Shown: positions 6,930 through 63,876 of the stretch, in pieces
How the letters are laid out: every line of letters starts with the position of its first letter
How positions within the stretch are numbered: the first letter of the stretch is position 1
DNA from: Candidatus Levyibacteriota bacterium
GTDB lineage: Bacteria; Patescibacteriota; Microgenomatia; Levybacterales; UBA12049
Reading direction: 5' to 3'
Assembly (NCBI GenBank): GCA_038254115.1
Contig: JBBSGK010000004.1
Coordinates: 4,227-68,226, forward strand
Length of the DNA: 64,000 nucleotides
Notes under the pieces: model-generated
Told to the model about the DNA's origin: nothing
The model's database searches: none
Seen by the model: the letters and a program-made list of their open reading frames with translations, nothing else
Made by a program: the position numbers and the translations under genes

Positions 6930-6952
6930 GTTTCCTCCCTTCGGTCGGTCAA

Positions 6953-6983
6953 GTGCAAAGTGCAAAGTGCAAAGTGCAAAGTG
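6953..6983. repeat. heptanucleotide tandem repeat (GTGCAAA) x4 plus a partial copy, in the rplK-rplA intergenic region
   Basis: Directly visible as gtgcaaagtgcaaagtgcaaagtgcaaagtg. Confidence 0.9.
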
Positions 6984-7039
6984 AAGGAATTTTTGTTTTT
7001 AATTATTTTTATTAAATTTAAACTTTTCATTTTTAACTT

Positions 7040-7462
7040 TTAACTTACTTCAACCCCCATTGATCTTGCAGTTCCGGCTACAATTCTTGCTGCCATTTCT
7101 ACGTCATCTGTATTCAGGTCTTCCATTTTGTCCTTTGCGATTTGGCGGGCCTGATCCATGGTGAGTTTGCCTATTTTTTCCCGTCCAGGTTTTTGTGATC
7201 CTTTTTCCTGGCCCATTGCTTTTTTGATCAGCTCGGCAACAGGGGATTTTTTGGTGATGAAAGAGAAAGTCCTGTCTTCATAAACAGTAATCACAACAGG
7301 GATGACATTGCCTTTCTGATCAGCAGTCTTATCATTGTAGGCTTTGACAAACTCCATGATGTTAAGACCATGTGGCCCGAGAGCAGTTCCGACAGGCGGT
7401 GCTGGTGTTGCTCCTCCTGCAGGTAATGCGATTTTAATTAATGTTTTTATTTTCTTAGCCAT
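7040..7462 (-). CDS. rplK: 50S ribosomal protein L11
   Basis: 140 aa with the L11 signature [43 protein letters not shown]... Confidence 0.93.
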
Positions 7463-7474
7463 AATAGTAAGTAC

Positions 7475-7693
7475 TTAGAAATTTTTTCCTTCACTTTTCC
7501 AGATTTTTCTTGTCCCTCTTCTTGCTCCTATCCTACTAAAATAGAATCCTTCTTTTCGAGCCAAGACTAATTCACCTTGAGTAGCTGTTACTCTGAATTC
7601 TGAACGTGTAACAGGCCATTGGCCTCCTTCCAGCTTTTTTACTCTGACACGAATTGGCAAATCTTCCTCTGATTTTTCAGCGCGTAACTTCAT
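7475..7693 (-). CDS. small basic ORF between nusG and rplK (uncertain; could be a leader region)
   Basis: 72-aa Arg/Lys-rich ORF in the 305-bp nusG-rplK gap, where an L11/L1 regulatory leader is usually found. Confidence 0.2.
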   Translation of the reverse strand: MKLRAEKSEEDLPIRVRVKKLEGGQWPVTRSEFRVTATQGELVLARKEGFYFSRIGARRGTRKIWKSEGKNF

Positions 7694-7767
7694 ATTTGCA
7701 AATACATAATAAAAGAATTAACAGGTTTTAGCACAATGAGTAAGTCTAATACCAATTCTTGGCCATC

Positions 7768-8406
7768 TCATATCTTCTTCACCTGTAAAAAGTCCAGCTC
7801 AACGGGGGTTTCCCTCCCGAAGATTGAGACCAGAACTTTTACTTTTCCGCGGGTTTCGTCTATATTGTCAATTGTTCCCAGGAACTCTGCAAAAGGTCCG
7901 TCTGTGATCTTTACTGCCTCACCGACTGTAAAGGCAACTTTGTAAAGAGGTTCATCCAGGTTCATAAACTTCTGAATTGCCTCAACTTCTTTCTCCGAAA
8001 TTGGAGTCGGTTTGTTCCCGGCTCCGATAAAGCTTGTTACTCCCTGAGTGCTTCTTACCATGAACCATGATTCATCATCCAGAATCATCCTGACAAGTAC
8101 ATATCCCGGGAAGATTTTTTCCTGAATTGTTTCTTTTTTGCCCTGGCTGACCTTGATTGTGTTGCGGGTCGGGACAATGATATCAAAGATACGGTCATCA
8201 AATTTCATCGCCTCGGCTCTTTGCTTAAGAGATCTGGCGACTTTGTTTTCATGCCCAGCATAGGTATGAAGAATGTACCATTTAGCGTTATCAGGAACAG
8301 TTACAACTTTTTTCTCGTCGCCTGCAATGCCCGCTGTATCGACAGGATCTGCTGCTTTTTTTTCTTCTTTCTTTTCTTTTGGTTCGGTTGTCTGCGCTGT
8401 ATCCAT
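7768..8406 (-). CDS. nusG: transcription termination/antitermination factor NusG with a charged N-terminal extension
   Basis: NGN domain (KWYILHTYAGHENKV...) and C-terminal KOW (GEAVKITDGPFAEFLGTIDNID...KVKVLVSIFGRETPVELDFLQV). It is preceded by an approximately 35-aa Lys/Glu-rich tail. Confidence 0.9.
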   Translation of the reverse strand: MDTAQTTEPKEKKEEKKAADPVDTAGIAGDEKKVVTVPDNAKWYILHTYAGHENKVARSLKQRAEAMKFDDRIFDIIVPTRNTIKVSQGKKETIQEKIFPGYVLVRMILDDESWFMVRSTQGVTSFIGAGNKPTPISEKEVEAIQKFMNLDEPLYKVAFTVGEAVKITDGPFAEFLGTIDNIDETRGKVKVLVSIFGRETPVELDFLQVKKI

Positions 8407-8977: not shown

Positions 8978-9199
8978 ATGGAGCGTATATTAAGAGAAGG
9001 TCATGTTAAGGGAGATGTTATAAGAGTCCGTAGCGCTGGTAATAGAGTTAAGGGAACGGTTGATATGGGTGAAACAGGGCACATAGAAGTTTTATCATCA
9101 GATCAGGCCAAATGGCAATATGATGAGGACGTGGCAAAAAGACGTTCACGGCAGGGAAACGCTCGGCAACAAGGTAGGGGAAGAAGGGGTGGGTCCTAA
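8978..9199 (+). CDS. small Arg-rich basic protein, hypothetical
   Basis: 73-aa ORF with an Arg/Gly-rich C-terminus (RRSRQGNARQQGRGRRGGS). No recognisable family. Confidence 0.35.
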   Translation: MERILREGHVKGDVIRVRSAGNRVKGTVDMGETGHIEVLSSDQAKWQYDEDVAKRRSRQGNARQQGRGRRGGS

Positions 9200-10503: not shown

Positions 10504-10530
10504 TATAGCATTTATTAATCACATTGGCAT

Positions 10531-10927
10531 TTTTATTTGCACTTTTTGCAGAAAAAGTGCCCAAAACTGCCGCCGGGTCTAGCTCCAGCTTTTTGAAATC
10601 TCACTCGTTCCCTAAAAGAGCCAGTCTTCGCTGCGCTTGCTTTTCCTCTTTTCCTGCCTGCCGGCAGACGTTCACTCATTCATTTCTCATGCAGTCGCTC
10701 GAATCGGCGGATACTATTTAGGCCTACCGTAATTCGGCAATTCGAGCATGCGTTAAAGAAATATGACTAATGAGCGTTAAGAAAACTGAAAAGTGAAGTG
10801 AAACTGAACGTAGTTTTTAGCGAAGAGGAAATATTTCTAGCACGCGCAGACCTGCCGACGCTTTTCGTTCTTTGTGCGCACAAAGAATAATAGAAAAGAA
10901 ATATTGCTGCAAAAAGTGCAATAAAAA
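10531..10927. mobile_element. MITE-like non-coding element of about 397 bp with 21-bp terminal inverted repeats
   Basis: The left end TTTTATTTGCACTTTTTGCAG (10531-10551) and the reverse complement of the right end CTGCAAAAAGTGCAATAAAAA (10907-10927) match at 19 of 21 positions. The interior carries no consistent ORF. A roughly 150-bp internal segment (10566-10716) recurs at 30866-31010. Confidence 0.5.
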
Positions 10928-30760: not shown

Positions 30761-30865
30761 GGATAAGATGGATTATAGCAGATTTATTGTGTACTTTTGG
30801 CAGCAAATGTATGCAAAACTGTTTTTTTATATGTTCTTTGTGTGGACAAAGAACCAAAGCCACCG

Positions 30866-31010
30866 CCAAGTCTAGCTCCAGCTTTCGGAATAGCACTCGC
30901 TCATTAAAAGAGTCAGTCTTCGCTACGCTTGCTTTTCCTCTTTTTCTGCCTGGCGGCAGACATTTTTTCGCTTATTTCTCATGCAGTCGCTCGAATCGGC
31001 GGATAATGGT
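30866..31010. repeat. second, partial copy (about 85% identity over about 150 bp) of the MITE-like element interior
   Basis: GTCTAGCTCCAGCTTT...CAGTCTTCGCT(A/G)CGCTTGCTTTTCCTCTTTT...CTGCCTG(G/C)CGGCAGAC...TTTCTCATGCAGTCGCTCGAATCGGCGGATA is shared with 10566-10716. Both copies are in the same orientation. Overlapping ORFs differ in frame and content, so the segment is non-coding. Confidence 0.6.
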
Positions 31011-42686: not shown

Positions 42687-42750
42687 TTAGTCGTTAGCTG
42701 TTAGTCATTAGTCGTTGGCTAAAGACAAAAGACCAAAGACCAAAAGCTAA
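42687..42750. repeat. heptamer tandem repeats in the tRNA spacer: (TAGTCRT)x4 followed by (AAAGACC)x3
   Basis: ttagtcgttagctgttagtcattagtcgttggctaaagacaaaagaccaaagaccaaaagc lies between tRNA-Tyr and tRNA-Thr(TGT). Confidence 0.6.
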
Positions 42751-47097: not shown

Positions 47098-47931
47098 TTA
47101 CGACTTGAAGATATTTATTATTTCTTTAATCTCAGGATAGCCGTTGAGAAAGTCTTTAACACTCATCGGTTTGCCGCCTTCGACTTGTATTTTTTTCTCC
47201 GGTAATAACTTTATTCTTAATTCTTTATTCTTAATTTTTACTATTGTCCAGACAGCCGGCCAGGGATAATAAGCCCTTATCATGCGGTCAAGTTTATCTT
47301 TACTTGGCAAGTTTTCTATATCTATCTGTCCATCAGATTTGCTCAAGTGTTTTGTGAATGTCGCTTCATGGTGATTTTGTTCACTCCATGACAATTCATC
47401 TTTAACATAACTCTTCAATATCTTTTCAATTAGTTTTGCGCCTAAAGCGAATAATTTGGTATGAAGAGTGTCCGTGGTGTCACTATCTAGAATATTCATT
47501 TTTTCCTGTGCGAGAATAGGCCCATGGTCTACATCTTTGTCCAGAACTATGAGGGTTGTTCCTGTTTCTTTCTCGCCATTTATAATTGCTGTCTGGACGG
47601 GAGTCGGGCCCCGGTACGATGGTAGAAGTGAAGGATGGATGTTCACAATTCCTTTTGGAAAAATGGATAAAAGACTTTGAGGTACGATACGGCCAAAATA
47701 ACCTAGCACAGCAACTTCTGCATTCATATCTTTTAATTTTGAGAGAAGATCTTCAGAATTTAAATCTTTCACAGAAATAAATGAGATATTGTTTTTTATA
47801 GCGTAGTGGGGGACTTCGTCAATTTTATTTGCTTCTGTGGTTACAATAAGCGAGAGGTCAAAATTTTCATTGAGCATTTTTATCACAGGGATTACATGTT
47901 TGGAGGAACCAAAAAATACTGTTTTTATCAT
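47098..47931 (-). CDS. fmt: methionyl-tRNA formyltransferase
   Basis: N-terminal formyltransferase domain VFFGSS...IVNIHPSLLPSYRGPTPVQTAIINGEKETGTTL, plus a C-terminal domain. Confidence 0.9.
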   Translation of the reverse strand: MIKTVFFGSSKHVIPVIKMLNENFDLSLIVTTEANKIDEVPHYAIKNNISFISVKDLNSEDLLSKLKDMNAEVAVLGYFGRIVPQSLLSIFPKGIVNIHPSLLPSYRGPTPVQTAIINGEKETGTTLIVLDKDVDHGPILAQEKMNILDSDTTDTLHTKLFALGAKLIEKILKSYVKDELSWSEQNHHEATFTKHLSKSDGQIDIENLPSKDKLDRMIRAYYPWPAVWTIVKIKNKELRIKLLPEKKIQVEGGKPMSVKDFLNGYPEIKEIINIFKS

Positions 47932-49441: not shown

Positions 49442-51745
49442 TTATTTTCCCCAGATCTTTAAACTATCTTGTACTTGTTTGTCCTGTAGGTCGATGTTTT
49501 TCAGAATATATTGATATGTATTTATTGCTTTTTGATTATCTCCCACTTCGTGGTAAAAAAGGCCCAGGGCAAAGTATGCATCGCGATAGTCAGGCTTGAG
49601 TTTTATGGTATGCTCCAGGATCTCAATTCCTTTTTTGGGGCCCATTGTTTGTCCTGCAAGTACTCCATAGTTGTAGGATATTTTGGCATCATTTGGCGCA
49701 AGCTCCCGGGCCTTTATGATGGAGCTTAGAGCTTTGCCATAATAATTTTTTTCATTGTCCTTCCCACTCTGCGCAAGTGTATAGAAAAGTCTTACGCGGT
49801 TTTTCCAGTAGACAATATTGTTGGGATGAGTATTTATGACATTGTCACTTATTGTGATTGCATCCCGCGATAACTGAGCTGCTCCTGATGCGTCTTTTTG
49901 AAGATATAAAGCAGATGCCAGGGTGCCCAGATTTATGGATAGTTCATCTTTATAAACAGGCTCATTTGGCTCTGCATTGACCGCGTTTTGGAGAGGGGTA
50001 ATTGCTTCCTGATAACTACCTACTTTATCCAGACTTGAACCATTTGCGTAATTCAGATCAGCGCTCCAGTAGCTAAAAAGGTTCTGAAGGAAGAGAGAAG
50101 AAGTAAGAAGTAAGGCTACTAGCAGAATCCATTGGATGATCGAGGTTTTAGATGGGACAGAAGGCTCATCGGAGACAGAGGGAAAGCTTAATACTTTTTG
50201 GGGATTGAGTATTCCGGATAGTATGAATATGAATGCAGGAATTAGGAAAAAGTAGAGATTGATTATTACAACCGAGAATCCGAAGAAGTTGGAAACCAAG
50301 ATTGAAACCCACCCCGCGAATAGAGCAGTAATCAGAATACTCGGAATACTCAGAGAACCAGTTGATCTGACCTTCAGATTTTCAGATGATCTGAGCGGAC
50401 TGTCATTCTGAGTTTTCAGAGTTTTCTGAAAAACTTGAAAAATAAATAATCCAATGATTGCTAGATAGCTTCCCAGACCAAATGCTCCCGTTGTCGCCAG
50501 ATAATTTAGGTATTCATTGTGGGCCTTGTTGTACAGATAATCCCATTCCGAAGTGACATTGTGTTCCACTGGCCGGTATCTGTAATAGGCAAAAGCAAAT
50601 GTCTCAACACCTGTCCCGATAATCGGATTTGCCTTCCATGCATCTATTGCCCCGCGCCAAACCAAAAGACGGATTTTGCCGGAATCAGTTCCTCCGAGTT
50701 CTCCGGCAGCTGGTAATTCGTGGGTTGAAGTTGGATTTGATGATTTTATTTTGTTCAATTCAGGCAAAGTGAATTTTGAAAGTTGTGAAATAGGAACGCC
50801 CGAAAAGAAATTGAAAACTATAAATATCAGATTGAATAGCAGAAAGTATTTTAGGAAATTTTCTTTGAGATATTTTTTGAAAAATAGTATTGCCCAGAAG
50901 ATAATATTTGCAATCCAAAAACCTATAAAACCGCCTCGTGTATCGGTGTAGGTGAGGCAGGCATAAAATAAAGAAGTAAGAAGTAGGAAGTAAGAAGCAA
51001 GGAAAAAATTTCCTGAACCATAATTCTTGATTCTTGATTCTTGATTCTCATGGGATGATTCTGATTTAGATTTTAGATTTCTTAGAAAGTAGGAAATTGA
51101 AAGAGGTATTAAAACTGACATGTATGCAGCAAGCCAAGCCGGCTGACCAAGAGTTGAGAAGATACGGATTGTGGGTTTGAATGCATCAGTCCAGCATGAT
51201 GTATCAAAACTTCCCCTGAAAATATAACAAGTAGGGTCCCAACCAAAATGGGATGGAAATCCCCAAAGAGCAACAATCAAGCCTGAAAATAAGCTAACTT
51301 TTAAGACTTTAAGTACGTGTTTGGTTTCCAGATTGGAGACAAAGGCGTAGTATAGAAATATATAAGAGATGATAGATAACAGGCCGCCGTTAAATCTTGA
51401 GTAATAACCCCAGAGCGAGACATGCGGATCAAGGGAAAAAATTGTTGAGATTATTTGAGAAGCGAGGAAAAGAATTAGCGGAATATCAAGAGGTGTACGT
51501 TGGATGAAGATTCTTTTTTGAAGAATCATTTTTGCTATCCAGGAAGCGCCGATTATGGTTGTTATTCCAAAAGTAAGCCACATTTTTGGAAATTCAAAAA
51601 GTTCTGAAGGGGATCCGCTAAAAACAATGGGGACTAGGAGGAAGAGGGCGTAGAAGGAGAATTCGATAATGCGGTTGCAAAAATTTATAATTTTCATTAG
51701 CGGGATGATGTACGGCAGATAAAACTTCATTTTCCATGGTATCAT
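49442..51745 (-). CDS. O-antigen-ligase-like polytopic membrane protein with C-terminal TPR repeats
   Basis: 767 aa, at least 12 TM helices with a Wzy_C-like core, then TPR-like repeats (...AINTYQYILKNID...). It contains in-frame heptamer-repeat inserts. Confidence 0.75.
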   Translation of the reverse strand: MIPWKMKFYLPYIIPLMKIINFCNRIIEFSFYALFLLVPIVFSGSPSELFEFPKMWLTFGITTIIGASWIAKMILQKRIFIQRTPLDIPLILFLASQIISTIFSLDPHVSLWGYYSRFNGGLLSIISYIFLYYAFVSNLETKHVLKVLKVSLFSGLIVALWGFPSHFGWDPTCYIFRGSFDTSCWTDAFKPTIRIFSTLGQPAWLAAYMSVLIPLSISYFLRNLKSKSESSHENQESRIKNYGSGNFFLASYFLLLTSLFYACLTYTDTRGGFIGFWIANIIFWAILFFKKYLKENFLKYFLLFNLIFIVFNFFSGVPISQLSKFTLPELNKIKSSNPTSTHELPAAGELGGTDSGKIRLLVWRGAIDAWKANPIIGTGVETFAFAYYRYRPVEHNVTSEWDYLYNKAHNEYLNYLATTGAFGLGSYLAIIGLFIFQVFQKTLKTQNDSPLRSSENLKVRSTGSLSIPSILITALFAGWVSILVSNFFGFSVVIINLYFFLIPAFIFILSGILNPQKVLSFPSVSDEPSVPSKTSIIQWILLVALLLTSSLFLQNLFSYWSADLNYANGSSLDKVGSYQEAITPLQNAVNAEPNEPVYKDELSINLGTLASALYLQKDASGAAQLSRDAITISDNVINTHPNNIVYWKNRVRLFYTLAQSGKDNEKNYYGKALSSIIKARELAPNDAKISYNYGVLAGQTMGPKKGIEILEHTIKLKPDYRDAYFALGLFYHEVGDNQKAINTYQYILKNIDLQDKQVQDSLKIWGK
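50971..51049. repeat. roughly 80-bp imperfect palindromic repeat element: (GAAGTAA)n, spacer, (TTCTTGA)n, in frame in the ligase-like gene
   Basis: aagaagtaagaagtaggaagtaagaagcaagg...aaaaaatttcc...ttcttgattcttgattcttgattctc. A second copy is at 55201-55267, and a half-copy (gaagaagtaagaagtaagg) at 50096-50114. Confidence 0.6.
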
Positions 51746-51746
51746 A

Positions 51747-52901
51747 TTGGAAAAACGTGGGCAAGCTGATAGAATAGGTTTAATTATGAATCTCTTGAAT
51801 AGTTTCTACGGTCTTTTTTCTCACGATATCGGTATAGATCTCGGCACTGCAAATACTCTTGTTTTTGTCCGGGATAAAGGGATTGTGATCCGTGAACCGT
51901 CAGTTGTCGCGAGGCAAAAAAAGAGCAAACAAATCATCGCGATTGGAAGTGAGGCCAAGAAAATGCTTGGCAAGACACCTGCTTCTATAGTTACGGTACG
52001 TCCGCTTCATGGGGGAACGATTGCGGATTTTGACGCGACTGTTTCGATGATCGCTTACTACATCAAGCAAGTCCATGAGATGGGGGGAAAATTGACCGGG
52101 ATTTTTGCCCGTCCCAAAGTGGTGATTGGGATTCCATCTGCAGTAACCGAGGTTCAAAGACGTGCTGTCTGGGAAGCAGCTCTCTCAGCAGGAGCCCGGG
52201 AAGCGTATCTTATTGAAGAGCCGATGGCCGCGGCAATTGGTGAGAATATATCAATTTTTCAGTCAAAGGGCATAATGGTAGTCGATATAGGCGGCGGGAC
52301 TACAGAAATCGCGGTTATCTCGCTTGGTGGAATAGTAGTCGGCCGGTCAATGAAACTCGCCGGAGACGAGATGGATCAGGCGATCCTGCATTATGTGCGG
52401 CTTCGCCATGGAATGCTTCTTGGGGAGAGTACAGCTGAGGATATAAAAATAAAAATAGGAAGCGCTGCCCAGAAAAGCGCAAAAGCGCAAAAGCGAAGAA
52501 GCGAAGAAGGGGAAGAAGAGAAGGAAGAGATTAGCCGTACGGCGAAGGTTATGATTGTGAGGGGACGGGATATTGAGACTGGTCTTCCAAAAAGCCAGAA
52601 GATAACTGAGCCTGAAATACGTGAGGCATTATCTCCGATAATCAATCAAATAATTCAAGCCGTTGCCGATGTTTTGGAGGAAACGCCGCCTGAGCTATTG
52701 CCTGATATTCTCGAGCAGGGAATTCTTCTCACAGGTGGGGGCGCCAATTTGGAAGGCTTTGATCAGTTGATGGTTGAACGGGTGCATCTGCCTGTTTTTG
52801 TTTCATCTGATCCGATGACCTCTGTTGTCCGCGGAACGGGAAAAGTTGTGCAGGATGAAAAACTCCTCGAGCGGGTGAAGGTAATTGGGGGATTGAGGTA
52901 G
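51747..52901 (+). CDS. mreB: rod-shape-determining protein MreB (with an approximately 35-aa charged insert)
   Basis: Actin-fold motifs DLGTANT, VIGIPSAVTEVQRRA and DIGGGTTE. The insert QKSAKAQKRRSEEGEEEKEE is encoded by the heptamer repeat (AAAGCGC)n(GAAGCGA)n at 52474-52512. Confidence 0.93.
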   Translation: MEKRGQADRIGLIMNLLNSFYGLFSHDIGIDLGTANTLVFVRDKGIVIREPSVVARQKKSKQIIAIGSEAKKMLGKTPASIVTVRPLHGGTIADFDATVSMIAYYIKQVHEMGGKLTGIFARPKVVIGIPSAVTEVQRRAVWEAALSAGAREAYLIEEPMAAAIGENISIFQSKGIMVVDIGGGTTEIAVISLGGIVVGRSMKLAGDEMDQAILHYVRLRHGMLLGESTAEDIKIKIGSAAQKSAKAQKRRSEEGEEEKEEISRTAKVMIVRGRDIETGLPKSQKITEPEIREALSPIINQIIQAVADVLEETPPELLPDILEQGILLTGGGANLEGFDQLMVERVHLPVFVSSDPMTSVVRGTGKVVQDEKLLERVKVIGGLR

Positions 52902-52921
52902 GAATAAAATTGTTATCCTGC

Positions 52922-53476
52922 TCATGCAGCCGGATTGAGCGCTATCCTACCGGTACGCAGTCCAAAGAAAAAATCTTCCGCTTTTGCCCGTTCATTTTCT
53001 GTGAGTCTGGCCAGGCTTTCGGCAGTTGAAGCATCAATTCTCGCACCGGTCATCATGATAGGAAGAGCTTCCATTTCGTCTACACTCAATTCACGTGAGC
53101 CTAGAGGAATATGGAATGTTGTTCCGTCTTCTTCTGCAACAACATAAGACTTTCTTTCCATGGATGAAGGTCCAATCCCATCTTTACCAGGAATAGGAGT
53201 AAAGGTTGACTTGACAGTTTGAGGACCATCCTCAAACATTACACCGGAACGTGTTAAACCAACTCCTGCTGTATTTGATTTGGCGTTGGGATCCACATAA
53301 TTGAGGCGATATCCACCATCTGATCCTCTGACTTTTATTCCTTCTTTCGCAGACTTTAAATCTCCTAACCCACCATAAAATAAGCTGATGGCCATTCTTC
53401 TTGCATCATCCTTTCTGCTTTGGTCTGGACTTAGTGGTCTTTCTGGTGAGCTTGCCATAATAAGTGGATGATACAT
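52922..53476 (-). CDS. hypothetical protein inserted between mreB and mreC
   Basis: Start trimmed to the ATG at 53474-53476 (MYHPLIMASSPER...). The longer ORF to 53782 overlaps a plus-strand promoter and ORF. Confidence 0.5.
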   Translation of the reverse strand: MYHPLIMASSPERPLSPDQSRKDDARRMAISLFYGGLGDLKSAKEGIKVRGSDGGYRLNYVDPNAKSNTAGVGLTRSGVMFEDGPQTVKSTFTPIPGKDGIGPSSMERKSYVVAEEDGTTFHIPLGSRELSVDEMEALPIMMTGARIDASTAESLARLTENERAKAEDFFFGLRTGRIALNPAA

Positions 53477-53500
53477 TTTTAATAACAGATTGTCAAGACT

Positions 53501-53531
53501 AGCGGTGAAGGTAATTGGGGGATTGAGGTAG
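53501..53531 (+). repeat. duplicate of the last 31 nt of mreB (29 of 31 identical), distal to the inserted gene
   Basis: AGCGGTGAAGGTAATTGGGGGATTGAGGTAG versus the mreB 3' end GCGGGTGAAGGTAATTGGGGGATTGAGGTAG at 52871-52901. Confidence 0.7.
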
Positions 53532-53534
53532 AGA

Positions 53535-53562
53535 TTGCAAATAAACAAAATTGTGGTAGAAT
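53535..53562 (+). promoter_or_regulatory. sigma-70-like promoter (TTGCAA, 16-nt spacer containing TG, TAGAAT)
   Basis: TTGCAA at 53535-53540, then TGgTAGAAT with TAGAAT at 53557-53562, followed 8 nt later by the ATG at 53571. Confidence 0.35.
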
Positions 53563-53570
53563 GCATTTCT

Positions 53571-53882
53571 ATGGGATTAGAAACACAAGATAGATTGGCA
53601 AGAGAAAGAGTACTTGCTACGCTTACATCAATGTCAAATGATGCATATCCATCAAACACACGGCATATAGCTGAAAGAATGGTTCGAGGCAAACCTACAA
53701 CGGGTGATCTGGTAACTGTTTTTCTTGCGTTGGGTCCACTTGAGGAGGAAGGAAAAGTAGAATCTGTTGTAGTTAGACACACAAATCCGGCACATATTGC
53801 TTATCGATTAACCAGAGAATCAGAGCCAAGACGTAGGCGAAAACGAAATAGAAAATGGCCAATAGAGGAAGTTAGAAGATAA
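53571..53882 (+). CDS. small winged-helix-like protein (PadR-like?) with an Arg-rich tail, hypothetical
   Basis: MGLETQDRLARERVLATLTS...TTGDLVTVFLALGPLEEEGKVESVV resembles the PadR wing (LYPALHRLEEEGLI). The C-terminus is RRRRKRNRK. Confidence 0.35.
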   Translation: MGLETQDRLARERVLATLTSMSNDAYPSNTRHIAERMVRGKPTTGDLVTVFLALGPLEEEGKVESVVVRHTNPAHIAYRLTRESEPRRRRKRNRKWPIEEVRR

Positions 53883-54049
53883 TCATCTAAAATTAAACCA
53901 AAATAATACTAGTTATTGACTAGCGGAAGAGTAATCTGTCAGGATTTGTTAAAATTCCTATTGTTCGAGCGTAGCTGACTTTCATTCGCTAAAGCCTCGG
54001 GGGGATATGCAGTTTTGAATTTACAATCAGGGAAGTATATAATACCTTT

Positions 54050-54805
54050 ATGCAGAAGAGGAAGAGTTTTTTCCCCACGTTTTTAATCTTTTTTATACTT
54101 TCTATATTTATTTTTCTCTTATCCCGCTTAGGATTTCTCAACGGATTGACAGGATTTTTGGAGAGGGCAACAGTACCTCTGCAACGTGTAATATTTGGAG
54201 CAACACATTCCGATAAATGGGGAGAGTCTGCAAAATTGAAGGATGAAAATAGTAAATTGGCCTCACAAATTGTAAAGCAATCAGAATTGAAGCGTGAAAA
54301 TCAGGCACTCCGTGATCAATTCCAGACTTCAAATCCGGCGCCCAGAATACTTTTACCGGCAAAAATTATAGGTAACAATGATGGCAGTCTAACAATTGAT
54401 AAGGGACGCGCGGACACTCTAAAAAAAGGTGATGTAGTAGTTATAAAAGACAATCTAATCGGCAAGGTGGAGAAAATTTCAGAACACCTCGCAACTGTAA
54501 GCCTTCTAACTTCAAACATAATCTTTACTGCAAAAACGGCCAAAACAGGATCAGTCGGAATACTGAAAGGCCAATCAAATGGCATGATACTTGATAATGT
54601 TCTGCTCAATGATCATCTTGAGAAAGACGATTTGGTCATAACAAAGGGGGATGAAGATTTATATGGAAGTGGATTTCCGCCTGATCTGGTTGTCGGGAAA
54701 ATTGTTTCGGTAAATAAAAAAGCAAGCAATCTTTTCCAAAGCGCTGAAGTTAGGAGCTTAATTGATTTTTCCAAACTCGAAACAGTATTCATAATTACGA
54801 AATAA
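54050..54805 (+). CDS. mreC: rod-shape-determining protein MreC
   Basis: N-terminal TM helix, coiled coil (ENSKLASQIVKQSELKRENQALRDQF), then beta-rich domains. It lies downstream of mreB. Confidence 0.85.
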   Translation: MQKRKSFFPTFLIFFILSIFIFLLSRLGFLNGLTGFLERATVPLQRVIFGATHSDKWGESAKLKDENSKLASQIVKQSELKRENQALRDQFQTSNPAPRILLPAKIIGNNDGSLTIDKGRADTLKKGDVVVIKDNLIGKVEKISEHLATVSLLTSNIIFTAKTAKTGSVGILKGQSNGMILDNVLLNDHLEKDDLVITKGDEDLYGSGFPPDLVVGKIVSVNKKASNLFQSAEVRSLIDFSKLETVFIITK

Positions 54806-54811
54806 CTTTAA

Positions 54812-55222
54812 ATGGAGATATTATTTTTCATTCTACTTATAATTTCTATTTTCGTGGAATCAACTTTTATAAACTTGCCCCTAGTATTCATTCTTCTGGT
54901 TGTGTTTTGTATCCTCAAAAAAAGCGGCTACGTATTTTTGAGCGCTTTTTTAGCAGGAATTTTACTGGATCTTACAGCAGTCCGGTTTCCGGGAACATCC
55001 AGTATTTTTTTCCTCCTCGTTCTTTTAATGATCATGCTATATCAACGCAAATATGAAATTAATTCTTATCCTTTTATACTTGTCAGCTCGTTTGTTGGAA
55101 CGTATATGTATTTGATTATTTTTAATAAGCATGCTAATTTATTACAGCCATTTTTATGTACCATTTTAGCATTGGTGCTATACTCAGTTCTGCAAATACG
55201 GGAAGTAAGAAGCAATAATTAA
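54812..55222 (+). CDS. mreD: rod-shape-determining protein MreD-like membrane protein
   Basis: 136 aa, four to five TM helices, positioned between mreC and mrdA. Confidence 0.6.
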   Translation: MEILFFILLIISIFVESTFINLPLVFILLVVFCILKKSGYVFLSAFLAGILLDLTAVRFPGTSSIFFLLVLLMIMLYQRKYEINSYPFILVSSFVGTYMYLIIFNKHANLLQPFLCTILALVLYSVLQIREVRSNN

Positions 55223-55284
55223 GAGTTAAGGTCTTGTGGTAAATTTTTCCTTGATTCTTGATTCGTTATTATTAATTCATATCT

Positions 55285-57078
55285 ATGAAAACAGGATACG
55301 CCTTTGGTGAGCATATAAAAACAGAGAAGATCAAAAAAAGAAGATATTCGTCAGGTCCGTCGGATTTTAACTCGCGCGAATTTTTTCTTCCCCTTGCACT
55401 TTTTGGAGCAGCCGTTCTTCTGATATCCAAACTATTTTATCTGCAAGTGGTTAAGGGTTCTGATTTCCGGGCGCTTTCTGATTCCAACCGAATAAGGACT
55501 CAAATTATTCATGCTCCGCGGGGTGCTATATTTGACCGGAACGGTGTCCCGCTTGTAATAAATAATCCGGGATTCAGGCAGGTAAATAAAGACAAATCAA
55601 CAATCTTGACTCGGGATCAGGCGCTGCCTCTTATTGCAAAAGGGGATAAAAATCTCGAGGTAGACTCTCTCAGGAATTATGTCTTAAAAGACAGTCTGAG
55701 CCATGTTATCGGATACATCGGCCAGGTCTCCAAGCCCGAGCTCGATTCAGGGGAGTTTAATGATTACCGTGGTACTGATTGGATAGGTAAAAGCGGAATT
55801 GAGAGGCAATATGAACACATATTGAGGGGCACAGACGGTAAGCAACTGGTTGAAGTCAATGCAATGGGTAATAAAGTGCGTCCACTTGGCACGACCGATC
55901 CAATTTCAGGGCAGGATATCACACTGACGATTGATTCGAAGCTTCAGCAAGTTGTATTTGACGCGACAAAAGATGTAAAAAAGGGCGCTGTTATCGTCTC
56001 CAGCCCGACAGGTGAAATTCTGGCAATGGTTTCGCGTCCTTCTTATGACCCCAATCTTTTTACCCTGGATAAAACTTATAAAGTTGCAACGGATGCAGCG
56101 CATCAAAATGTAAGTGAGATACTTCTGGATTCACAAAATCAGCCGCTTTTGAACAGGGCAATTGCAGGTACATATCCTCCCGGCTCAACATACAAAATAG
56201 TGACAGCCGCCGCCGGACTTAATGAAAATATTATTGATGAGAATTACAAGATACGCGACAGCGGTGTAATAAAAGTCGGGGAGTTTTCTTTTGCGAATTG
56301 GTACTATACGGGTTATGGCAGGACAGAGCCGGGTGAGCTAAATGTAGTCCGTGCACTGGCTCGGTCCAATGACATTTTTTTCTACAAACTTGCTGAAAAA
56401 GTAAGTCCTGACAAGCTATCTGAAATGGCAGTAAAATTTGGTTTGGGAAATAAATCGGGCATTGACTTGGGAGGAGAAGCAAAAGGTTTGGTTCCTACTG
56501 AAAAATGGAAAAAAACTGTAATTGGGGAGGGATGGTACTTGGGAGACACTTATCATTATGGAATAGGACAGGGATTTTTATTGACAACACCTCTTCAAGT
56601 TAATGAATGGACAGAGGTAGTTGCAAATGGCGGGAGTCTGTACGAGCCACATTTGCTGAAAGCTCAAAGTGAAAAGCGCAAAAGCGCAAATATTTTGAAT
56701 GATAAGACGATTTCTTTGATCAGGCAGGGAATGATTGAAAGCTGCTCAACGGGAGGTGTTGCGTGGCCATTATTCAAGTTTAAAGTTCAAAATCCAAAGT
56801 TAAAAGTTGATGGCAAAAATATTTTGGAAGTAAAAGAAGCCAGTGAATCAGCAAAATCTGAAAGCTTGAGAGAGATTGCGGTGGCGTGCAAGACTGGAAC
56901 CGCCCAGCATGGAGGGGAGACGACCCTGCCTCATGCATGGATTACCCTCTTTGCTCCTGCATACAATCCCCAAGTTGTAGTAACTGTTTTGAATGAGGAG
57001 AGTGGGGAAGGCTCAAATGAGGCAGCCCCAATAGCTAAAAAGATATTGGAAGCCTATTTTACAGAAACACCTCAATAA
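55285..57078 (+). CDS. mrdA: penicillin-binding protein 2 (peptidoglycan D,D-transpeptidase)
   Basis: N-terminal anchor, dimerisation domain, and transpeptidase motifs SxxK (PGSTYKIV), SxN (ARSNDIFFY) and KTG (ACKTGTAQ). It contains (AAAGCGC)x2 at 56672-56689. Confidence 0.9.
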   Translation: MKTGYAFGEHIKTEKIKKRRYSSGPSDFNSREFFLPLALFGAAVLLISKLFYLQVVKGSDFRALSDSNRIRTQIIHAPRGAIFDRNGVPLVINNPGFRQVNKDKSTILTRDQALPLIAKGDKNLEVDSLRNYVLKDSLSHVIGYIGQVSKPELDSGEFNDYRGTDWIGKSGIERQYEHILRGTDGKQLVEVNAMGNKVRPLGTTDPISGQDITLTIDSKLQQVVFDATKDVKKGAVIVSSPTGEILAMVSRPSYDPNLFTLDKTYKVATDAAHQNVSEILLDSQNQPLLNRAIAGTYPPGSTYKIVTAAAGLNENIIDENYKIRDSGVIKVGEFSFANWYYTGYGRTEPGELNVVRALARSNDIFFYKLAEKVSPDKLSEMAVKFGLGNKSGIDLGGEAKGLVPTEKWKKTVIGEGWYLGDTYHYGIGQGFLLTTPLQVNEWTEVVANGGSLYEPHLLKAQSEKRKSANILNDKTISLIRQGMIESCSTGGVAWPLFKFKVQNPKLKVDGKNILEVKEASESAKSESLREIAVACKTGTAQHGGETTLPHAWITLFAPAYNPQVVVTVLNEESGEGSNEAAPIAKKILEAYFTETPQ

Positions 57079-57098: not shown

Positions 57099-57674
57099 TT
57101 GCCCCCCCTGATAGAATATAGGACTATGAGATTTGAAAAGCAAGATAGAAGACCACATGTAGCAAGGGATGGTCAACGCGGCAGAAGCGAGGAGGGCTCG
57201 GAGCTTCCGGCCGGCCCAAGAAAAAGTTTTTTTGATGCTGTTAACCAAAAGGGTTCTGATATGCGTGATTTAGCCTGCCGAGGGTTACTATATCAGTCAA
57301 CAACTGGCGAGATAACTGTGGGAAGTAATCCCCAAAATGGGCCAAAAGTTACAATAACGGTTGATATTAAGGCAAATCGTGATATGGTGGTTCATAGACG
57401 CATATATCATGATTCCAGCGGCAAGCATCTAAAAAGACATGATGAATTGGAACTTACATCTTCAGACAGGGATCCAGCAACAAGAACTTTCACAAGAATT
57501 AGAATTGAGAGTGAGGATCACATAAGCGGAAAAAAGTCTTTCACCATTGATAATGAGGGACCAGATCAAGTAGTAGACCAAAGCGGTGTAGATTTTGCAA
57601 CAAAAATTCTTAAAGATGCATCCGGTGATTTAAAGCGCTTAATGAGACCTGAGGCATCTGATGAGTTCGCGTAA
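57099..57674 (+). CDS. hypothetical protein (Arg-rich) inserted after mrdA
   Basis: 191-aa ORF, bracketed by the mrdA 3' end and its duplicate. Confidence 0.5.
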   Translation: MPPLIEYRTMRFEKQDRRPHVARDGQRGRSEEGSELPAGPRKSFFDAVNQKGSDMRDLACRGLLYQSTTGEITVGSNPQNGPKVTITVDIKANRDMVVHRRIYHDSSGKHLKRHDELELTSSDRDPATRTFTRIRIESEDHISGKKSFTIDNEGPDQVVDQSGVDFATKILKDASGDLKRLMRPEASDEFA

Positions 57675-57687
57675 CTCTCCCCAAAAA

Positions 57688-57733
57688 GCCAAAAAAATCT
57701 TGGAAGCGTATTTTACAGATCGAAAATAATTGA
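57688..57733 (+). pseudogene. degenerate duplicate of the mrdA 3' terminus
   Basis: GCCAAAAAAATCTTGGAAGCGTATTTTACAGATCGAAAATAATTGA encodes KKILEAYFTDRK*, versus genuine GCTAAAAAGATATTGGAAGCCTATTTTACAGAAACACCTCAATAA (AKKILEAYFTETPQ*) at 57034-57078. Confidence 0.65.
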
Positions 57734-57779
57734 TTCTTCAAATACTTGATTTTTATTAATCTTATGTTATTATTTTGCT

Positions 57780-58115
57780 ATGATTGATAGGGACCAGGTC
57801 CGAGCAAGGTATAGGAGATTAAAGCCTTTTGTAAGCAGTTTAGAGAGCGTACCAAAAGCAGAGCAATTGTGGAGAAACAAAGACCGAGGCGTAATATTCT
57901 CATTATTAAAATATGCAACTTTAGAAGACGCAGTATTAGGTGATTACACTGGGGCAGAACTAAATTTACGTGGGAGATTAAGAGCAAGAACAAAAGTTGT
58001 TGATGATTTTGTCAGAGCTTTTGGTAAGCCAACTAGAGAAAAATTGACTAAAGTGCTGGGAGTACCTAAAAAGGTAATATGGGAAGATCCAAGAATTAAT
58101 AGATCCTCACAATAA
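57780..58115 (+). CDS. hypothetical protein (Arg-rich)
   Basis: 111-aa ORF. Confidence 0.4.
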   Translation: MIDRDQVRARYRRLKPFVSSLESVPKAEQLWRNKDRGVIFSLLKYATLEDAVLGDYTGAELNLRGRLRARTKVVDDFVRAFGKPTREKLTKVLGVPKKVIWEDPRINRSSQ

Positions 58116-58138
58116 GACTGGATTCTGCATAAAGATTA

Positions 58139-58765
58139 TTGTATAATACCGCCATGGTATTAGCAGAAGTAGAAACAGAAGGCAAAGAACAAGATGGGTA
58201 TTTCAGAGTCCGCAGGTTTGTCGCCCGGGTGTCGGATCTGCATGAGCTTCAGGAACAAAGACTTGAAGGTATGAAGATGGAGCGAGGGGTCGGATCGCTT
58301 GATGGCCAGATCGCTATAGTTGAGGAGGATTTGCGTGACAGAGCTGAGCAGACTGAGGTGCAGGATTGGGCAGCCAGAAAGAAGGAGCAGTACGATGCCG
58401 AGTTTACTGGACTTGTGCGCCAAAAAGGGCGACGGGGACAAAGCCTCTCAGCATTAGATGAAGAGATTGAAGCTCTAAGAGGAAGTAAAGAGGTCTTAGC
58501 TCTACGTTGGTACTTAGAAAGTAGGCAGGGAGGGTCGAGAAAGAGGGGCCAAAAATCTCCATCAGCAAATGCGCAGAAACGAGTTGCTGCACTTGGTAGG
58601 GCTATTAAAGATGGAAATTATAGAACACCACAGGGGCATTTTGCAGTAGGGCGAGCAGCAACAGATATTGGAATAGGGCCAAATACTGCCAAAAGAGATT
58701 TTATGAGACTGCCAGCAGATCAAAGAGGGGGACTGACCCTTAGAACAGCCGCTCCTAGAAAATAA
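58139..58765 (+). CDS. hypothetical protein (Arg-rich)
   Basis: 208-aa ORF. Confidence 0.45.
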   Translation: MYNTAMVLAEVETEGKEQDGYFRVRRFVARVSDLHELQEQRLEGMKMERGVGSLDGQIAIVEEDLRDRAEQTEVQDWAARKKEQYDAEFTGLVRQKGRRGQSLSALDEEIEALRGSKEVLALRWYLESRQGGSRKRGQKSPSANAQKRVAALGRAIKDGNYRTPQGHFAVGRAATDIGIGPNTAKRDFMRLPADQRGGLTLRTAAPRK

Positions 58766-61803: not shown

Positions 61804-63876
61804 ATGAAACATTTAGTCATCGTAGAATCACCGACAAAAGCCCGTACTATTACTAAATTTTTAGGAAGTGATTACGACATCAAATTCTCAATGGGGCATG
61901 TCATGGATTTGCCTAAGAGCCGATTGAGCATTGATGTCGAAAATAATTTTACACCTCTATATGAAGTGATAGGGGACAAAAAAAAATTAATAGCTGAGCT
62001 TAAGAGTCTCGCCAAAAACGCAGATACTATCATTCTGGCAACTGATCCTGACCGCGAAGGAGAGGCGATAGCCGCGCATATAAAGGATGTACTTAGCACA
62101 AATTTAAAACTTAAAACTCAGGATTTAAAAAAATTTCAGAGGATTGCTTTCCATGAAATAACGGAAAGCGCGATCAAAGAGGCTTTGCTTCACCCCCGAG
62201 ATATTGACACAAATTTGGTTAATGCGCAGACAGCAAGGCGCGTTCTTGACCGTTTGGTTGGATATGAGCTGTCACCGCTCCTTTGGAAAAAAGTAAGACG
62301 CGGTTTGTCAGCAGGACGTGTCCAGAGCGTTGCTTTGCGTTTGATTGTACAAAGAGAGCGTGAGATTGAGAGATTTGCAAAAAGTAATTACTGGACAATT
62401 CATGCACTATTTGCAAATAAAATCGGGGAAGCTGAATTTGAACTTCTTGAAATAAATAATCAAAGAATTGAATCAAAGGAAAAATTTACTCTTTATGATG
62501 GGGAATATAATGTAAGTAAAACAACTCTCGATTCAGAAAAAAAAGCGCAGGAAATTCTTAACGATCTGAAAGGCAAAGAATTTGTGGTCTCAGACGTTGC
62601 ACAAAAACAAGCCAAAAGAACACCAAGTCCTGTATTCACAACCTCTACTCTTCAGCAGGATGCTTCACGCAGATTTGGTTTCTCAGGAAAACGGACAATG
62701 AGTCTTGCCCAAAAACTTTATGAAGAGGGATTTATAACTTATCACAGGACTGACTCTATCGCTGTGTCCAAACAGGCGATAATAAAAATGCGGGAATTTA
62801 TAGAAAAGGAATATGGACGTAAATATCTTCCTGATTCACCGCGTATTTTTTCTGGAAAACAAAAGAACGCTCAAGAAGCGCATGAAGGAATCAGGCCGAC
62901 TCAAGCTGGTAGAAAGCAACAGGAAGTAACAGGCCAGATGGGTGTTGATTATGGTAAGCTTTATGACTTGATTTGGAGAAGAGCTCTGGCATCTCAGATG
63001 GCGGATGCCATAATTGAGTCGACTTCTGTTCTGGTTGATGCAAAAAACGGTTCATCCAATGTTTACCGCTTTAAAGCAGCAGGGTCTGTTCTCGTTTTTG
63101 ATGGATTTTTGAGACTAAATCCACAGGCTCTTAAGGATAACCAGTTACCAAAGTTTTCGGCTAATGAGATTCTTGTTGAGAAAAACATAAGGTCCGATGC
63201 TCATGAAACAGCGCCTCCTCCCAGATACAATGAGGCCTCAATCATCGCAACTCTTGAGGAAAAAGGAATCGGCAGGCCATCCACATATGCTGCTATTATC
63301 TCAACTCTAGTTGACCGCGCCTATGTTGAACGGGTTGAGCGGAAATTTGTCCCAACACCGATTGGAATGTCGGTAAATGATTTCTTGGTTGCCAATTTCG
63401 GAGATATTGATGATATTCCATTTACGGCCTCGATGGAGGAGACACTGGATGACGTAGCCAATGGTAAAAAAGATTGGGTTGCGATGATGAAGGATTTTTA
63501 TATTCCTTTTGAAAAAGACATAAAAGACGCTGAAGGATCTGAAAGAGTTGCTATTGCAACTGAGGCAACCGATGAAAAGTGCCCTGAGTGCTCATCAACA
63601 CTTGTCATAAGACATGGTAAATTTGGAAAGTTTCTCTCCTGCAGCACTTTTCCTGACTGTAAATTCACAAAAGCTTTTGTTGAGGAGACTGACTCGCTTT
63701 GCCCCAAAGACGCGGGCAAGATAGTTGTCCGCAAAACACGAAAAGGCCGCAAATTCTATGGCTGCGCCAATTATCCCAAATGCGACTTCGCAGCATGGAA
63801 GCTTGAGGATATAAATAAAAGCGCAGAAGAGAAAGAGCGAAAAAGTGCAAAAAAATCCACTGAGAAAAAGAAATAA
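61804..63876 (+). CDS. topA: DNA topoisomerase I
   Basis: TOPRIM N-terminus (MKHLVIVESPTKARTI...DPDREGEAIA), catalytic Tyr region (YITYHRTDS), and C-terminal zinc-ribbon repeats (CPECSS...CSTFPDC, CPKDAG...CANYPKC). Confidence 0.93.
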   Translation: MKHLVIVESPTKARTITKFLGSDYDIKFSMGHVMDLPKSRLSIDVENNFTPLYEVIGDKKKLIAELKSLAKNADTIILATDPDREGEAIAAHIKDVLSTNLKLKTQDLKKFQRIAFHEITESAIKEALLHPRDIDTNLVNAQTARRVLDRLVGYELSPLLWKKVRRGLSAGRVQSVALRLIVQREREIERFAKSNYWTIHALFANKIGEAEFELLEINNQRIESKEKFTLYDGEYNVSKTTLDSEKKAQEILNDLKGKEFVVSDVAQKQAKRTPSPVFTTSTLQQDASRRFGFSGKRTMSLAQKLYEEGFITYHRTDSIAVSKQAIIKMREFIEKEYGRKYLPDSPRIFSGKQKNAQEAHEGIRPTQAGRKQQEVTGQMGVDYGKLYDLIWRRALASQMADAIIESTSVLVDAKNGSSNVYRFKAAGSVLVFDGFLRLNPQALKDNQLPKFSANEILVEKNIRSDAHETAPPPRYNEASIIATLEEKGIGRPSTYAAIISTLVDRAYVERVERKFVPTPIGMSVNDFLVANFGDIDDIPFTASMEETLDDVANGKKDWVAMMKDFYIPFEKDIKDAEGSERVAIATEATDEKCPECSSTLVIRHGKFGKFLSCSTFPDCKFTKAFVEETDSLCPKDAGKIVVRKTRKGRKFYGCANYPKCDFAAWKLEDINKSAEEKERKSAKKSTEKKK

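Follow-up and report, generated by a model that had tools for sequence, protein, structure and literature searches.

Heptanucleotide repeats have been described as the most abundant class of long simple sequence repeat (LSSR, with units of 5-11 nt) in many bacteria, with polymerase slippage as the proposed source (Mrazek, Guo and Shah 2007, as cited in PMC4679880 and PMC4692102). Among the better-characterized examples, the short tandemly repeated repetitive (STRR) sequences of cyanobacteria are 7-bp tandem repeats of unknown function that can form intergenic hairpins (PMC2670836). TAACTGA direct repeats occur in marine Beggiatoaceae and in some Cyanobacteria and Bacteroidetes, where 2-6 copies lie at scattered sites and occasionally within open reading frames (ORFs), at the periphery of the protein (PMC4679880). 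The G-quadruplex-forming heptamers GGGAATC and GGGGAYT of Xanthomonas and Nostoc are over-represented in particular lineages and vary between close relatives (PMC4692102). Here, we analyze a 64,000-nt stretch of a Candidatus Levyibacteriota genome (assembly GCA_038254115.1, contig JBBSGK010000004.1; hereafter, the window), in which two genes of one cell-shape cluster, mreB and mrdA, carry short tandem arrays that share an exact 20-nt word. We found that heptamer arrays are a lineage-wide trait, located mostly in tolerant variable loops, and are not a mobile element. As for the shared word itself, we put the probability at roughly 0.5 that both arrays reached AAA(A)GCGC independently, in which case the 20-nt identity would be a coincidence of two low-complexity arrays.

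The two genes and their arrays are as follows.

51747-52901, + strand: mreB, from the ORF list; 384 aa if translated from a TTG, and 371 aa according to the Logan gene call
52467-52544, + strand: charged MreB loop (AQKSAKAQKRRSEEGEEEKEEISRTA), basic and then acidic, lineage-specific, from alignment to PDB 8azg
52473-52523, + strand: degenerating octamer array in mreB, AAAAGCGC AAAAGCGC AAAAGCGA AGAAGCGA AGAAGGGG AAGAAGAG AAG
55285-57078, + strand: mrdA, from the ORF list; penicillin-binding protein 2 (PBP2), 597 aa, with Pfam PBP_dimer and Transpeptidase domains and homologues named PBP2
56659-56691, + strand: 33-nt array in a variable PBP2 linker, AAAGCTC AAAGTGA AAAGCGC A AAAGCGC AAAT
56776-56808, + strand: second mrdA heptamer array, AAGTTCA x4.7, peptide FKFKVQNPKLKV, found by Tandem Repeats Finder (TRF)

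The homologues of the first gene are named rod shape-determining protein MreB, and its product matches Pfam MreB_Mbl and a PDB MreB structure (E=1.6e-99); mrdA lies within an mreB-mreC-mreD-mrdA cluster. The organism belongs to the Microgenomates part of Patescibacteria, and its relatives, to which we refer by locus number (L002 and so on), carry the source names Levybacteria, Levyibacteriota, Patescibacteria group and Microgenomates, several other source names being evidently mis-binned. A profile search of contigs with the MreB alignment placed 2 of 80 loci within the lineage (L004 and L005), since its peptide patterns were too general, and the other loci served as controls. We found no near-identical variants of either protein: the 90%-identity MreB cluster holds this gene alone, and the PBP2 cluster has a single member.

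The shared word, GAAAAGCGCAAAAGCGCAAA, lies at 52472-52491 in mreB and at 56671-56690 in mrdA, on the + strand in both. An earlier note on this DNA had reported an exact word common to the two genes, and it is real, although it is 20 rather than 19 nt long and the positions given for it were off by 1-2 nt. At up to 2 mismatches, neither strand of the window has another copy, except for an overlapping register within the mreB array; a complementary copy is likewise lacking, and 100 dinucleotide-preserving shuffles gave no match of any kind. The same note had taken the unit to be a heptamer. TRF instead assigns a period of 8, with the octamer AAAAGCGC as its unit, and mrdA carries a heptamer array with one extra A.

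The first base of the 20-mer is a third codon position in mreB (KSAKAQK) and a first codon position in mrdA (EKRKSAN), and the difference in frame had been offered as the reason to regard the similarity as DNA-driven. The frames do differ and the similarity did arise at the DNA level, but this argument for it is weaker than it appears. Because the 8-nt unit gives one cyclic peptide, KSAKAQKR, in all three frames ((AAAAGCGC)x3, or 24 nt, encodes it once), the frame difference is a mere phase shift of a single peptide. The DNA-level origin follows rather from the exact identity at all synonymous positions, together with a period that is not a multiple of 3.

The window agrees with the Logan assembly of run SRR24807095 at 100% identity across 20,112 nt (window 42790-62901), a stretch that spans both 20-mer sites, and the assembly chimera that the earlier note named as a possible refutation is therefore unlikely. 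Since a second assembler agrees, assembly error is excluded; a peculiarity of sequencing is not, because the reads were probably the same. An artefact of either kind strikes us as barely credible, given the identical 20.1 kb from the second assembler, the in-frame state and conserved flanks of both genes, and the orthologous arrays in other samples; we found nothing in its favor.

We also assessed how common the word is elsewhere. At least 120 unrelated metagenome contigs (gut, seawater, soil and others) contain the 19-mer, at 2.4-4.9 copies and in both coding and non-coding contexts, and so do 14 viral contigs, compared with 4, 11 and 4 for three control octamer repeats of equal composition. 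This rate is at the upper end of the controls and of the same order of magnitude, and the 19-mer is thus a generic low-complexity word rather than a special one. About a quarter of the metagenome matches have common flanks (GGGAGATTTA-CAAAAGCGCAAAAGCGCAAA-TTTTTCCACACT) and come from a few Joint Genome Institute (JGI) samples; these loci (L087, L094, L096, L104, L109-L111, L118, L120, L121, L127, L131, L132, L134 and others) represent a dispersed repeat family of some unrelated organism.

The two arrays differ in age. In MreB, 32 residues separate IGSA from the RGRD strand, compared with 12 in PDB 8azg, which makes an insert of about 20 aa relative to solved MreB structures. (An AlphaFold2 model built from a 40-sequence alignment reached a mean predicted local distance difference test score of only 52.6 and was not used; the loop was placed by sequence alignment to the PDB entry.) The insertion of about 35 aa that the earlier note described as absent from canonical MreB is therefore shorter than claimed. 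It is also not recent, because an insert is present at this site in all 120 of the best homologues listed (73-100% identity), lysine-rich in its first half and glutamate-rich in its second, and variable in length and sequence. TRF resolves the array at period 8 as 3.9 copies at 91% or 6.0 copies at 85%, and the basic-to-acidic gradient of the loop peptide corresponds to A-to-G drift along one octamer array. An 8-nt periodicity is also found in mreB of four relatives whose MreB is only 78-85% identical.

L003: GGAAGCCC AAAAGCCC AAAAGCGC AAAGC
L242: AAAAGTGC AAAAGCGC CAAAGCGC AAAAGCCC
L241: AAAAGCAC AAAAGCGT AAAAGTCC AAAAGGTG
L243: GGGGGCGT GAGGGCGA AAAGGCGC CAAGGCGA

Since this periodicity is common to relatives at such distances, the mreB octamer array is old. 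The peptide [KG][SG][AP]KAQKRK is kept in all four, and protein-level selection probably now maintains the array in part. In another branch the mreB loop contains a heptamer array: (AACTAAG)x5 in L002 and L204, a related sequence in L206, and (AAACTAA)x4.6 in L005.

The mrdA array is of the heptamer type, and its one extra A creates a local period of 8, which TRF reports as 2.4 copies at 56672-56690; a hypothetical heptamer-only form would read AAAGCGCAAAGCGCAAAA. The earlier note had described this array as an in-frame insertion, and here our comparison disagrees. Among about 80 PBP2 homologues inspected, the window's segment LLKAQ-SE-KRKSAN-ILNDK equals in length the LLKNQ-KS-KIKNQK-LLNEK of most relatives, and in the closely related L002 the segment is 8 residues longer than in the window. 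At exactly the same position, relatives carry arrays of 33 nt made of other units.

L204: (RAAATCA)x4.4, peptide KNQKSKIRNQK
L002: (RAAATCA) type as in L204, split by a 24-nt GC-rich insert
L005: perfect (GATCAAA)x5
L243 and L241: (AAGAATC)n
L205, L206 and L207: (AAAGSGN)x4.7

In a neighbor-joining tree of PBP2 built without the loop, the window adjoins L204 and L002, which are of the AAAATCA type, while three other AAAG-type mrdA loops (P0124, P0134 and P0143) are scattered over the tree. The window's array is thus a young, lineage-specific remodelling, and AAAG-type arrays arose several times at the mrdA loop. Arrays at the position of the second mrdA array are likewise present in L002, L204 and L206.

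The GC-rich insert of L002 (14704-14727, TCCTTCGGCTCCGCTCAGGACGCG, peptide SFGSAQDA) splits the heptamer array of its mrdA loop and is absent from the window. Peptides resembling it (SSYAKASEDK, SSAKASADK and SFDSAQDK) occur in the MreB loops of P0037, P0079, P0084, P0042 and P0092 and in the PBP2 loops of P0128 and P0149, and inserts of this type may be a real small insert family.

Taken literally, the earlier note implies that heptamer repeats were inserted as a dispersed family, or that a miniature mobile element is at work. One word in two genes and many short arrays scattered over the window could be read in this way, but we consider such an element very improbable. The mrdA gene shows no gain in length relative to most homologues, all 120 of the closest homologues listed have the MreB loop, neither copy of the word is surrounded by terminal inverted repeats or a target duplication, and the units differ between arrays. 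What stands of the proposal is that repeats with a unit that is not a multiple of 3 sit inside essential genes and are strongly enriched; what does not is that they form one sequence family. A diversity-generating retroelement was also considered and rejected, as the 20-nt identity lacks adenine-specific mismatches and there is no template/variable repeat pair.

If the word had a function in the operon, it should be shared by the same two loops in other genomes. The longest word common to the mreB and mrdA loops is 20 nt in the window and 6-9 nt in L204, L002, L206, L005, L241 and L243. In the four relatives for which we computed a null distribution (L204, L002, L206 and L005), the shared word falls inside it, and the window's 20 nt falls far outside. 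L241 and L243 have an octamer-type mreB loop and yet carry AAGAATC in mrdA.

These comparisons bear on the possibility that the 20-mer is a functional nucleic-acid motif of one operon, whether a binding site for a protein or small RNA, a GCGC-AAAA-GCGC mini-hairpin, or an uptake sequence. Both copies are on the same strand of the mreB-mreC-mreD-mrdA cluster, and GCGCAAAAGCGC folds as a 4-bp hairpin of -5.2 kcal/mol (DNA parameters), as such a motif might. Still, the six relatives with both genes show no loop sharing beyond chance (with the null computed for four), no further or complementary copy exists in the window, and the hairpin is weak: z was -2.2, -1.7 and -0.9 for the three sequences folded, with only the mreB context marginally beating shuffles. 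An Rfam scan of the whole window returned 4 tRNAs only, with no match at either site. The octamer occurs just 8 times in 64 kb, 4 of them in the mreB and mrdA arrays, and on this count an uptake sequence was rejected outright. We therefore regard a functional motif as quite improbable, and conclude that the 20-mer is neither an inserted element nor a functional link between mreB and mrdA.

What the window does have is a pronounced habit of making heptamer arrays. At a TRF score of at least 30, it contains 14 period-7 arrays, compared with 1.6 expected from 40 locally dinucleotide-shuffled copies. At a score of at least 38, there are 7 period-7 arrays versus 0.0 expected, and 3 period-8 rows, which represent two arrays (mreB being reported twice), versus 0.02. 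Perfect period-7 arrays are similarly dense across the lineage:

In-lineage loci (the window and eight relatives' loci), 185 kb: 12.4 per 100 kb with at least 2.5 copies, 7.0 per 100 kb with at least 4 copies
Other Patescibacteria-like loci, 286 kb: 5.95 per 100 kb with at least 2.5 copies, 0.7 per 100 kb with at least 4 copies
Other bacteria at MreB loci, 1.04 Mb: 1.25 per 100 kb with at least 2.5 copies, 0.1 per 100 kb with at least 4 copies

The heptamer density of the lineage is thus 10 to 70 times that of other bacteria sampled at the same locus. Among periods 5 to 12, only 7 reaches 3 copies in the in-lineage set, and at a TRF score of at least 36, 55 of 83 loci have no period-7 or period-8 array at all. 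Two thirds of the 66 in-lineage arrays (44) are inside long ORFs and 22 are in spacers; because about 10% of the DNA is spacer, array density is about 4.5 times higher in spacers than in coding sequence. Coding arrays have a median length of 32 nt, with 30 of 44 between 29 and 36 nt and a single one longer than 37 nt, and spacer arrays have the same size mode with a tail to 60 nt. Plain slippage would predict mostly 2-3 copies, unlike this size preference. The in-lineage loci in which the preferred size is seen are the window, L002-L005 and L204-L207.

The units of these arrays are drawn from a restricted set. Across 95 period-7 arrays, the A-rich strand is 54% A, and AAGAATT, AAGAAGT, AAAAATC and AAAAATT each occur five times, at non-homologous as well as orthologous positions. 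Pairs of arrays share a unit in 1.4% of comparisons between loci (a rate inflated by pairs that are orthologous arrays) and in 2.9% within a locus, compared with about 0.085% for uniform units. The window's roughly 19 arrays make 171 pairs, and a vocabulary this small and A-rich predicts a few pairs with matching units; three are seen (AAGAAGT, CTTGATT and AAAAGCGC). Same-word pairs also occur elsewhere: the mrdA loop and topA of L002 share ATCAAAAATCAAAAAT, and two arrays in the Wzy-like gene of L204 share a perfect 32-mer. A plausible source of so small a vocabulary is reading in three frames, as a coding array would have to be both stop-free and compatible with its loop.

Together, these observations are consistent with the following account of the two arrays. 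Both were made at the DNA level, most likely, we infer, by replication slippage, in a lineage that makes many arrays of 7-nt units, rarely of 8 nt, and typically of about 32 nt. They would be tolerated because they lie in hypervariable, hydrophilic surface loops. A coding array whose unit is not a multiple of 3 would be read in three frames and survive only if stop-free and made of acceptable residues, and this filter would leave a small A-rich vocabulary, from which unrelated sites would draw identical units. In this account, mreB has an old octamer array, and mrdA a younger, lineage-specific remodelling of a loop that contains some heptamer array in nearly every relative. An independent origin is supported by AAAGSGN arrays in the mrdA loop of at least three other scattered lineages, among them L206, which has no matching mreB array, and by the arrays of other units that fill both loops in relatives.

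Several observations weigh against independence. An exact match of 20 nt demands more than a shared 7-nt core, GCGC-containing units fall outside the common A/T-rich vocabulary, and the extra A of mrdA makes mreB's octamer spacing although almost no other period-8 arrays occur. In the sister taxa L204 and L002, the mrdA array is different from that of the window, so that the window's state is young while the mreB array is old, the polarity that a copying event would predict. The earlier note had suggested that finding the 19-mer in unrelated genomes would reduce the match to a low-complexity coincidence. It is indeed found there, in the metagenome and viral contigs described above, but a global frequency of about ten matches per 2.9 million viral contigs is far too low on its own to account for two copies 4.2 kb apart; what counts for nearby copies is the local repeat-making habit. 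Finally, two more window-specific same-word matches occur at an offset of about 4.2 kb, involving the following feature.

55201-55264, + strand: 3' end of mreD and the spacer between mreD and mrdA, GGAAGTAAGAAGCAA ... CTTGATTCTTGATTC; both words are also found in this order at 50986-51048

The GGAAGTAAGAAGCAA and CTTGATTCTTGATTC pairs (15 nt each) are 4215 and 4217 nt apart, and the 20-mer pair 4199 nt. All three same-word pairs are in the same order, with downstream copies specific to this genome. Relatives carry other arrays at the mreD end and the mreD-mrdA spacer, and L204 has arrays with the same two units at the Wzy-like site corresponding to 50986-51048 (AAGAAGT at 5587 and AAGAATC at 5642). 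A rough, post hoc estimate of the chance of a shared 4.2-kb offset is about 0.01, and we found no mechanism for it. An ancient segmental duplication was rejected as its cause, since the genes in between show no relationship and the matches are limited to short words.

The alternative to which these observations point is a short patch copied from a template, the mreB array 4.2 kb upstream on the same strand, through either ectopic gene conversion or double template switching. About 11-20 nt would have been copied into a homeologous AAAGCGC-type heptamer array of mrdA, leaving its length unchanged. Such a patch would account for the exact 20-nt identity with its sharp borders and unrelated flanks, for the loop length kept at 33 nt (as expected of replacement rather than slippage), for the extra A that reproduces the octamer spacing of mreB, and for GCGC units that are unusual in the vocabulary. 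The donor is the older array, with its octamer periodicity in L003, L241, L242 and L243, and the mrdA state is absent from L204 and L002. The second window-specific match (55201-55264 versus 50986-51048) likewise has its older copy at the same distance and in the same orientation, and the perfect 32-mer shared by two L204 Wzy-like arrays suggests that arrays can homogenise. Against a patch, AAAGSGN arrays arise in the mrdA loop without an mreB donor (L206), the mrdA loop of L207 has acquired AAAGCGCAAAA independently, and the vocabulary already predicts a few same-unit pairs per window. Moreover, RecA-independent template switching drops off sharply as distance grows, and a tract of 20 nt barely reaches, or falls short of, the length that homologous recombination usually requires. 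We regard a templated patch as possible, though well short of even odds. No relative closer than 79-88% protein identity was present in the collections searched, and for that reason independent origin and patch are not separable here.

A broader reading, which we put forward tentatively and judge rather unlikely in its entirety, is that a lineage-wide period-7 process lays arrays of about 32 nt, remodels loops of essential proteins and fills spacers, and that the arrays swap short templated patches over a few kb. The loops concerned would be the MreB hairpin insert, the two PBP2 linkers, and loops of topoisomerase I, the formyltransferase and the Wzy-like protein, together with membrane segments of the last; the spacers would be those of tRNAs and genes. 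Patch exchange, if true, would explain both the mreB-to-mrdA 20-mer and the second pair at the 4.2-kb offset. Simple sequence repeats would then be a main source of protein-loop innovation in a reduced genome, under a size rule (about 4.6 units) beyond what plain slippage predicts.

The window's arrays are found in mreB, mrdA (two), topA, a formyltransferase gene, a Wzy_C-like gene (five), the tRNA-Tyr/tRNA-Thr spacer and other spacers. The other heptamer arrays listed in the earlier note were all present, at 6951-6983, 42688-42746, 50086-50114 and 50971-51048. Those beyond the mreB-mrdA cluster are as follows.

6951-7046, + strand: two arrays at gene boundaries, perfect AAGTGCA x4.7 and TTAACTT x5.0, largely in the spacer of ORFs 6042-6965 (- strand) and 7040-7462 (- strand)
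42688-42746, + strand: tRNA-Tyr/tRNA-Thr spacer with two heptamer arrays, TAGTCGT x4 and AAAGACC x3.5
47209-47240, + strand: heptamer array CTTAATT/CTTTATT x4.6 in the formyltransferase gene fmt (47098-47931, - strand), peptide KIKNKELRIK
50086-50114, + strand: heptamer array AAGAAGT inside the Wzy_C-like gene (49442-51745, - strand), whose sense strand here encodes the membrane segment LLLTSSLFL (TRF)
50971-51080, + strand: hypervariable loop of the Wzy_C-like gene with three heptamer arrays, AAGAAGT x4.4, ATTCTTG x3.7 and TTTAGAT x2.3 (TRF)
62100-62118, + strand: short heptamer array AAACTTA x2.7 in topA (TRF)

Two membrane segments of the Wzy_C-like protein are encoded by (CTTCTTA)n, and the protein alignment shows an indel-rich loop at the 50971-51080 arrays. 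Arrays orthologous to that at 50086-50114 are present in L002 and L204, and topA of L002 has four arrays.

Adjacent pairs of intergenic heptamer arrays are frequent in relatives (L002 9487-9587 and 13207-13306, L019 9777-9861, L004 6731-6812). At L002 9487-9587 and L019 9777-9861, the paired units are near reverse complements and give long imperfect intergenic hairpins, which could act as terminators or attenuators. A different kind of repeat occupies the - strand ORF at 2427-5318 (963 aa), which contains 9-nt and 42-nt tandem repeats (a perfect 42-mer x2.2 and several 9-mers, for example at 3943-4036 and 4265-5163); it encodes a repetitive, probably surface, protein and is unrelated to the heptamer arrays.

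The cluster also has sites of variable gene content. The 28 nt that end mreB, stop codon included (52874-52901), recur exactly 630 nt downstream (53504-53531), where the flanks are unrelated. A comparable copy with slight divergence is found in L003 (about 7420-7445 and 9105-9132), behind four cargo ORFs, among them a BrnT/CopG toxin-antitoxin pair. In relatives, the gap between mreB and mreC ranges from 423 nt to 5.2 kb, and its cargo differs (toxin-antitoxin in L002 and L003, a metabolic island in L241). The 3' end of mreB looks like an att-like integration hot spot, in which no integrase was seen. The interval between mrdA and dprA is a second variable cargo site: in the window it holds three arginine-rich ORFs without a Pfam match (191, 111 and 208 aa, 57099-58765), in L002 dprA directly follows mrdA, and in other relatives the site is occupied by small genes of other kinds (HicA toxin, PaaX/Cas2-like). 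Pfam gave no match for six neighboring ORFs, including 52922-53566, 53535-53879, 57099-58762 and mreD.

Other repeats in the window are dispersed. A non-coding repeat of about 210 nt, approximately 85% identical and with an exact 32-mer, lies in intergenic DNA at 10504-10720 and 30761-31010, 20.3 kb apart; it has no Rfam match and could be a small RNA, a regulatory region or a miniature element. Further exact repeats are at 37990/39045 (29 nt) and at 14044/14926 and 13221/14037 (15-25 nt), the latter two in three adjacent similar ORFs that are likely paralogues. In L204, on the 1.14-Mb contig of a relative (ena:ERZ25039485:contig_6640), mreB (6683-7881) was called as two overlapping ORFs (144 and 255 aa). 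This split implies a frameshift upstream of the loop, which could reflect a long-read homopolymer error or a real disruption.

The shared 20-mer is itself minor, and the heptamer background that it exposed is more useful. The arrays account for hypervariable-loop sequence in core cell-shape and cell-wall proteins, and they provide a concrete DNA-level origin for lineage-specific inserts in Patescibacteria proteins. They also form a natural data set on why bacteria favor a 7-nt slippage unit. In addition, loops built from arrays are a hazard for alignments, trees and frameshift calls in the annotation of metagenome-assembled genomes.

How, then, do these arrays compare with the systems described previously? 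The phase-variable contingency loci of Haemophilus, Neisseria and others resemble them in having within an ORF a unit that is not a multiple of 3 (8 nt in mreB, 7 nt in mrdA), such that a change of one unit shifts the frame. Here, however, there are only 2.4-2.9 perfect copies, in housekeeping or essential genes rather than in surface antigens, and it is between species that the arrays at the mreB and mrdA loops vary in unit and length. The GGGAATC and GGGGAYT heptamers are G-rich and intergenic, whereas the arrays here are A-rich and mostly coding, and tandem GGGAATC is not present. The TAACTGA repeats have one dominant unit, lie mostly just upstream of start codons and contain stops in all frames of one orientation (PMC4679880); tandem TAACTGA is absent from the window and the in-lineage loci.

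The STRR sequences can form hairpins, and paired inverted arrays also occur in this lineage (L002 and L019). STRR sequences differ in having a few fixed units that are mostly intergenic, in contrast to the many A-rich units found here, and no tandem copies of the STRR units CCCCAGT, TTGGTCA or CAACAGT were found in the window or 11 in-lineage loci.

The closest likeness is to the LSSR class, which, as summarized in PMC4679880 and PMC4692102, comprises head-to-tail arrays longer than composition predicts, with 7 nt favored. The window's arrays are head-to-tail copies, with period 8 at two sites and period 7 at 14 places, and are more frequent than in shuffles. They differ from the LSSR described there in that two thirds lie in coding sequence, within variable loops of conserved or essential genes, in that their length is centered on about 32 nt, and in that the phylum Patescibacteria is outside those reported there. 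A full-text literature search found no description of heptamer or tandem repeats in Patescibacteria, although its coverage was incomplete and this is weak evidence of novelty. We conclude that the arrays belong to the known LSSR class, and that what sets them apart is the phylum, the many A-rich units, the narrow range of lengths and the prevalence of coding arrays among core genes.

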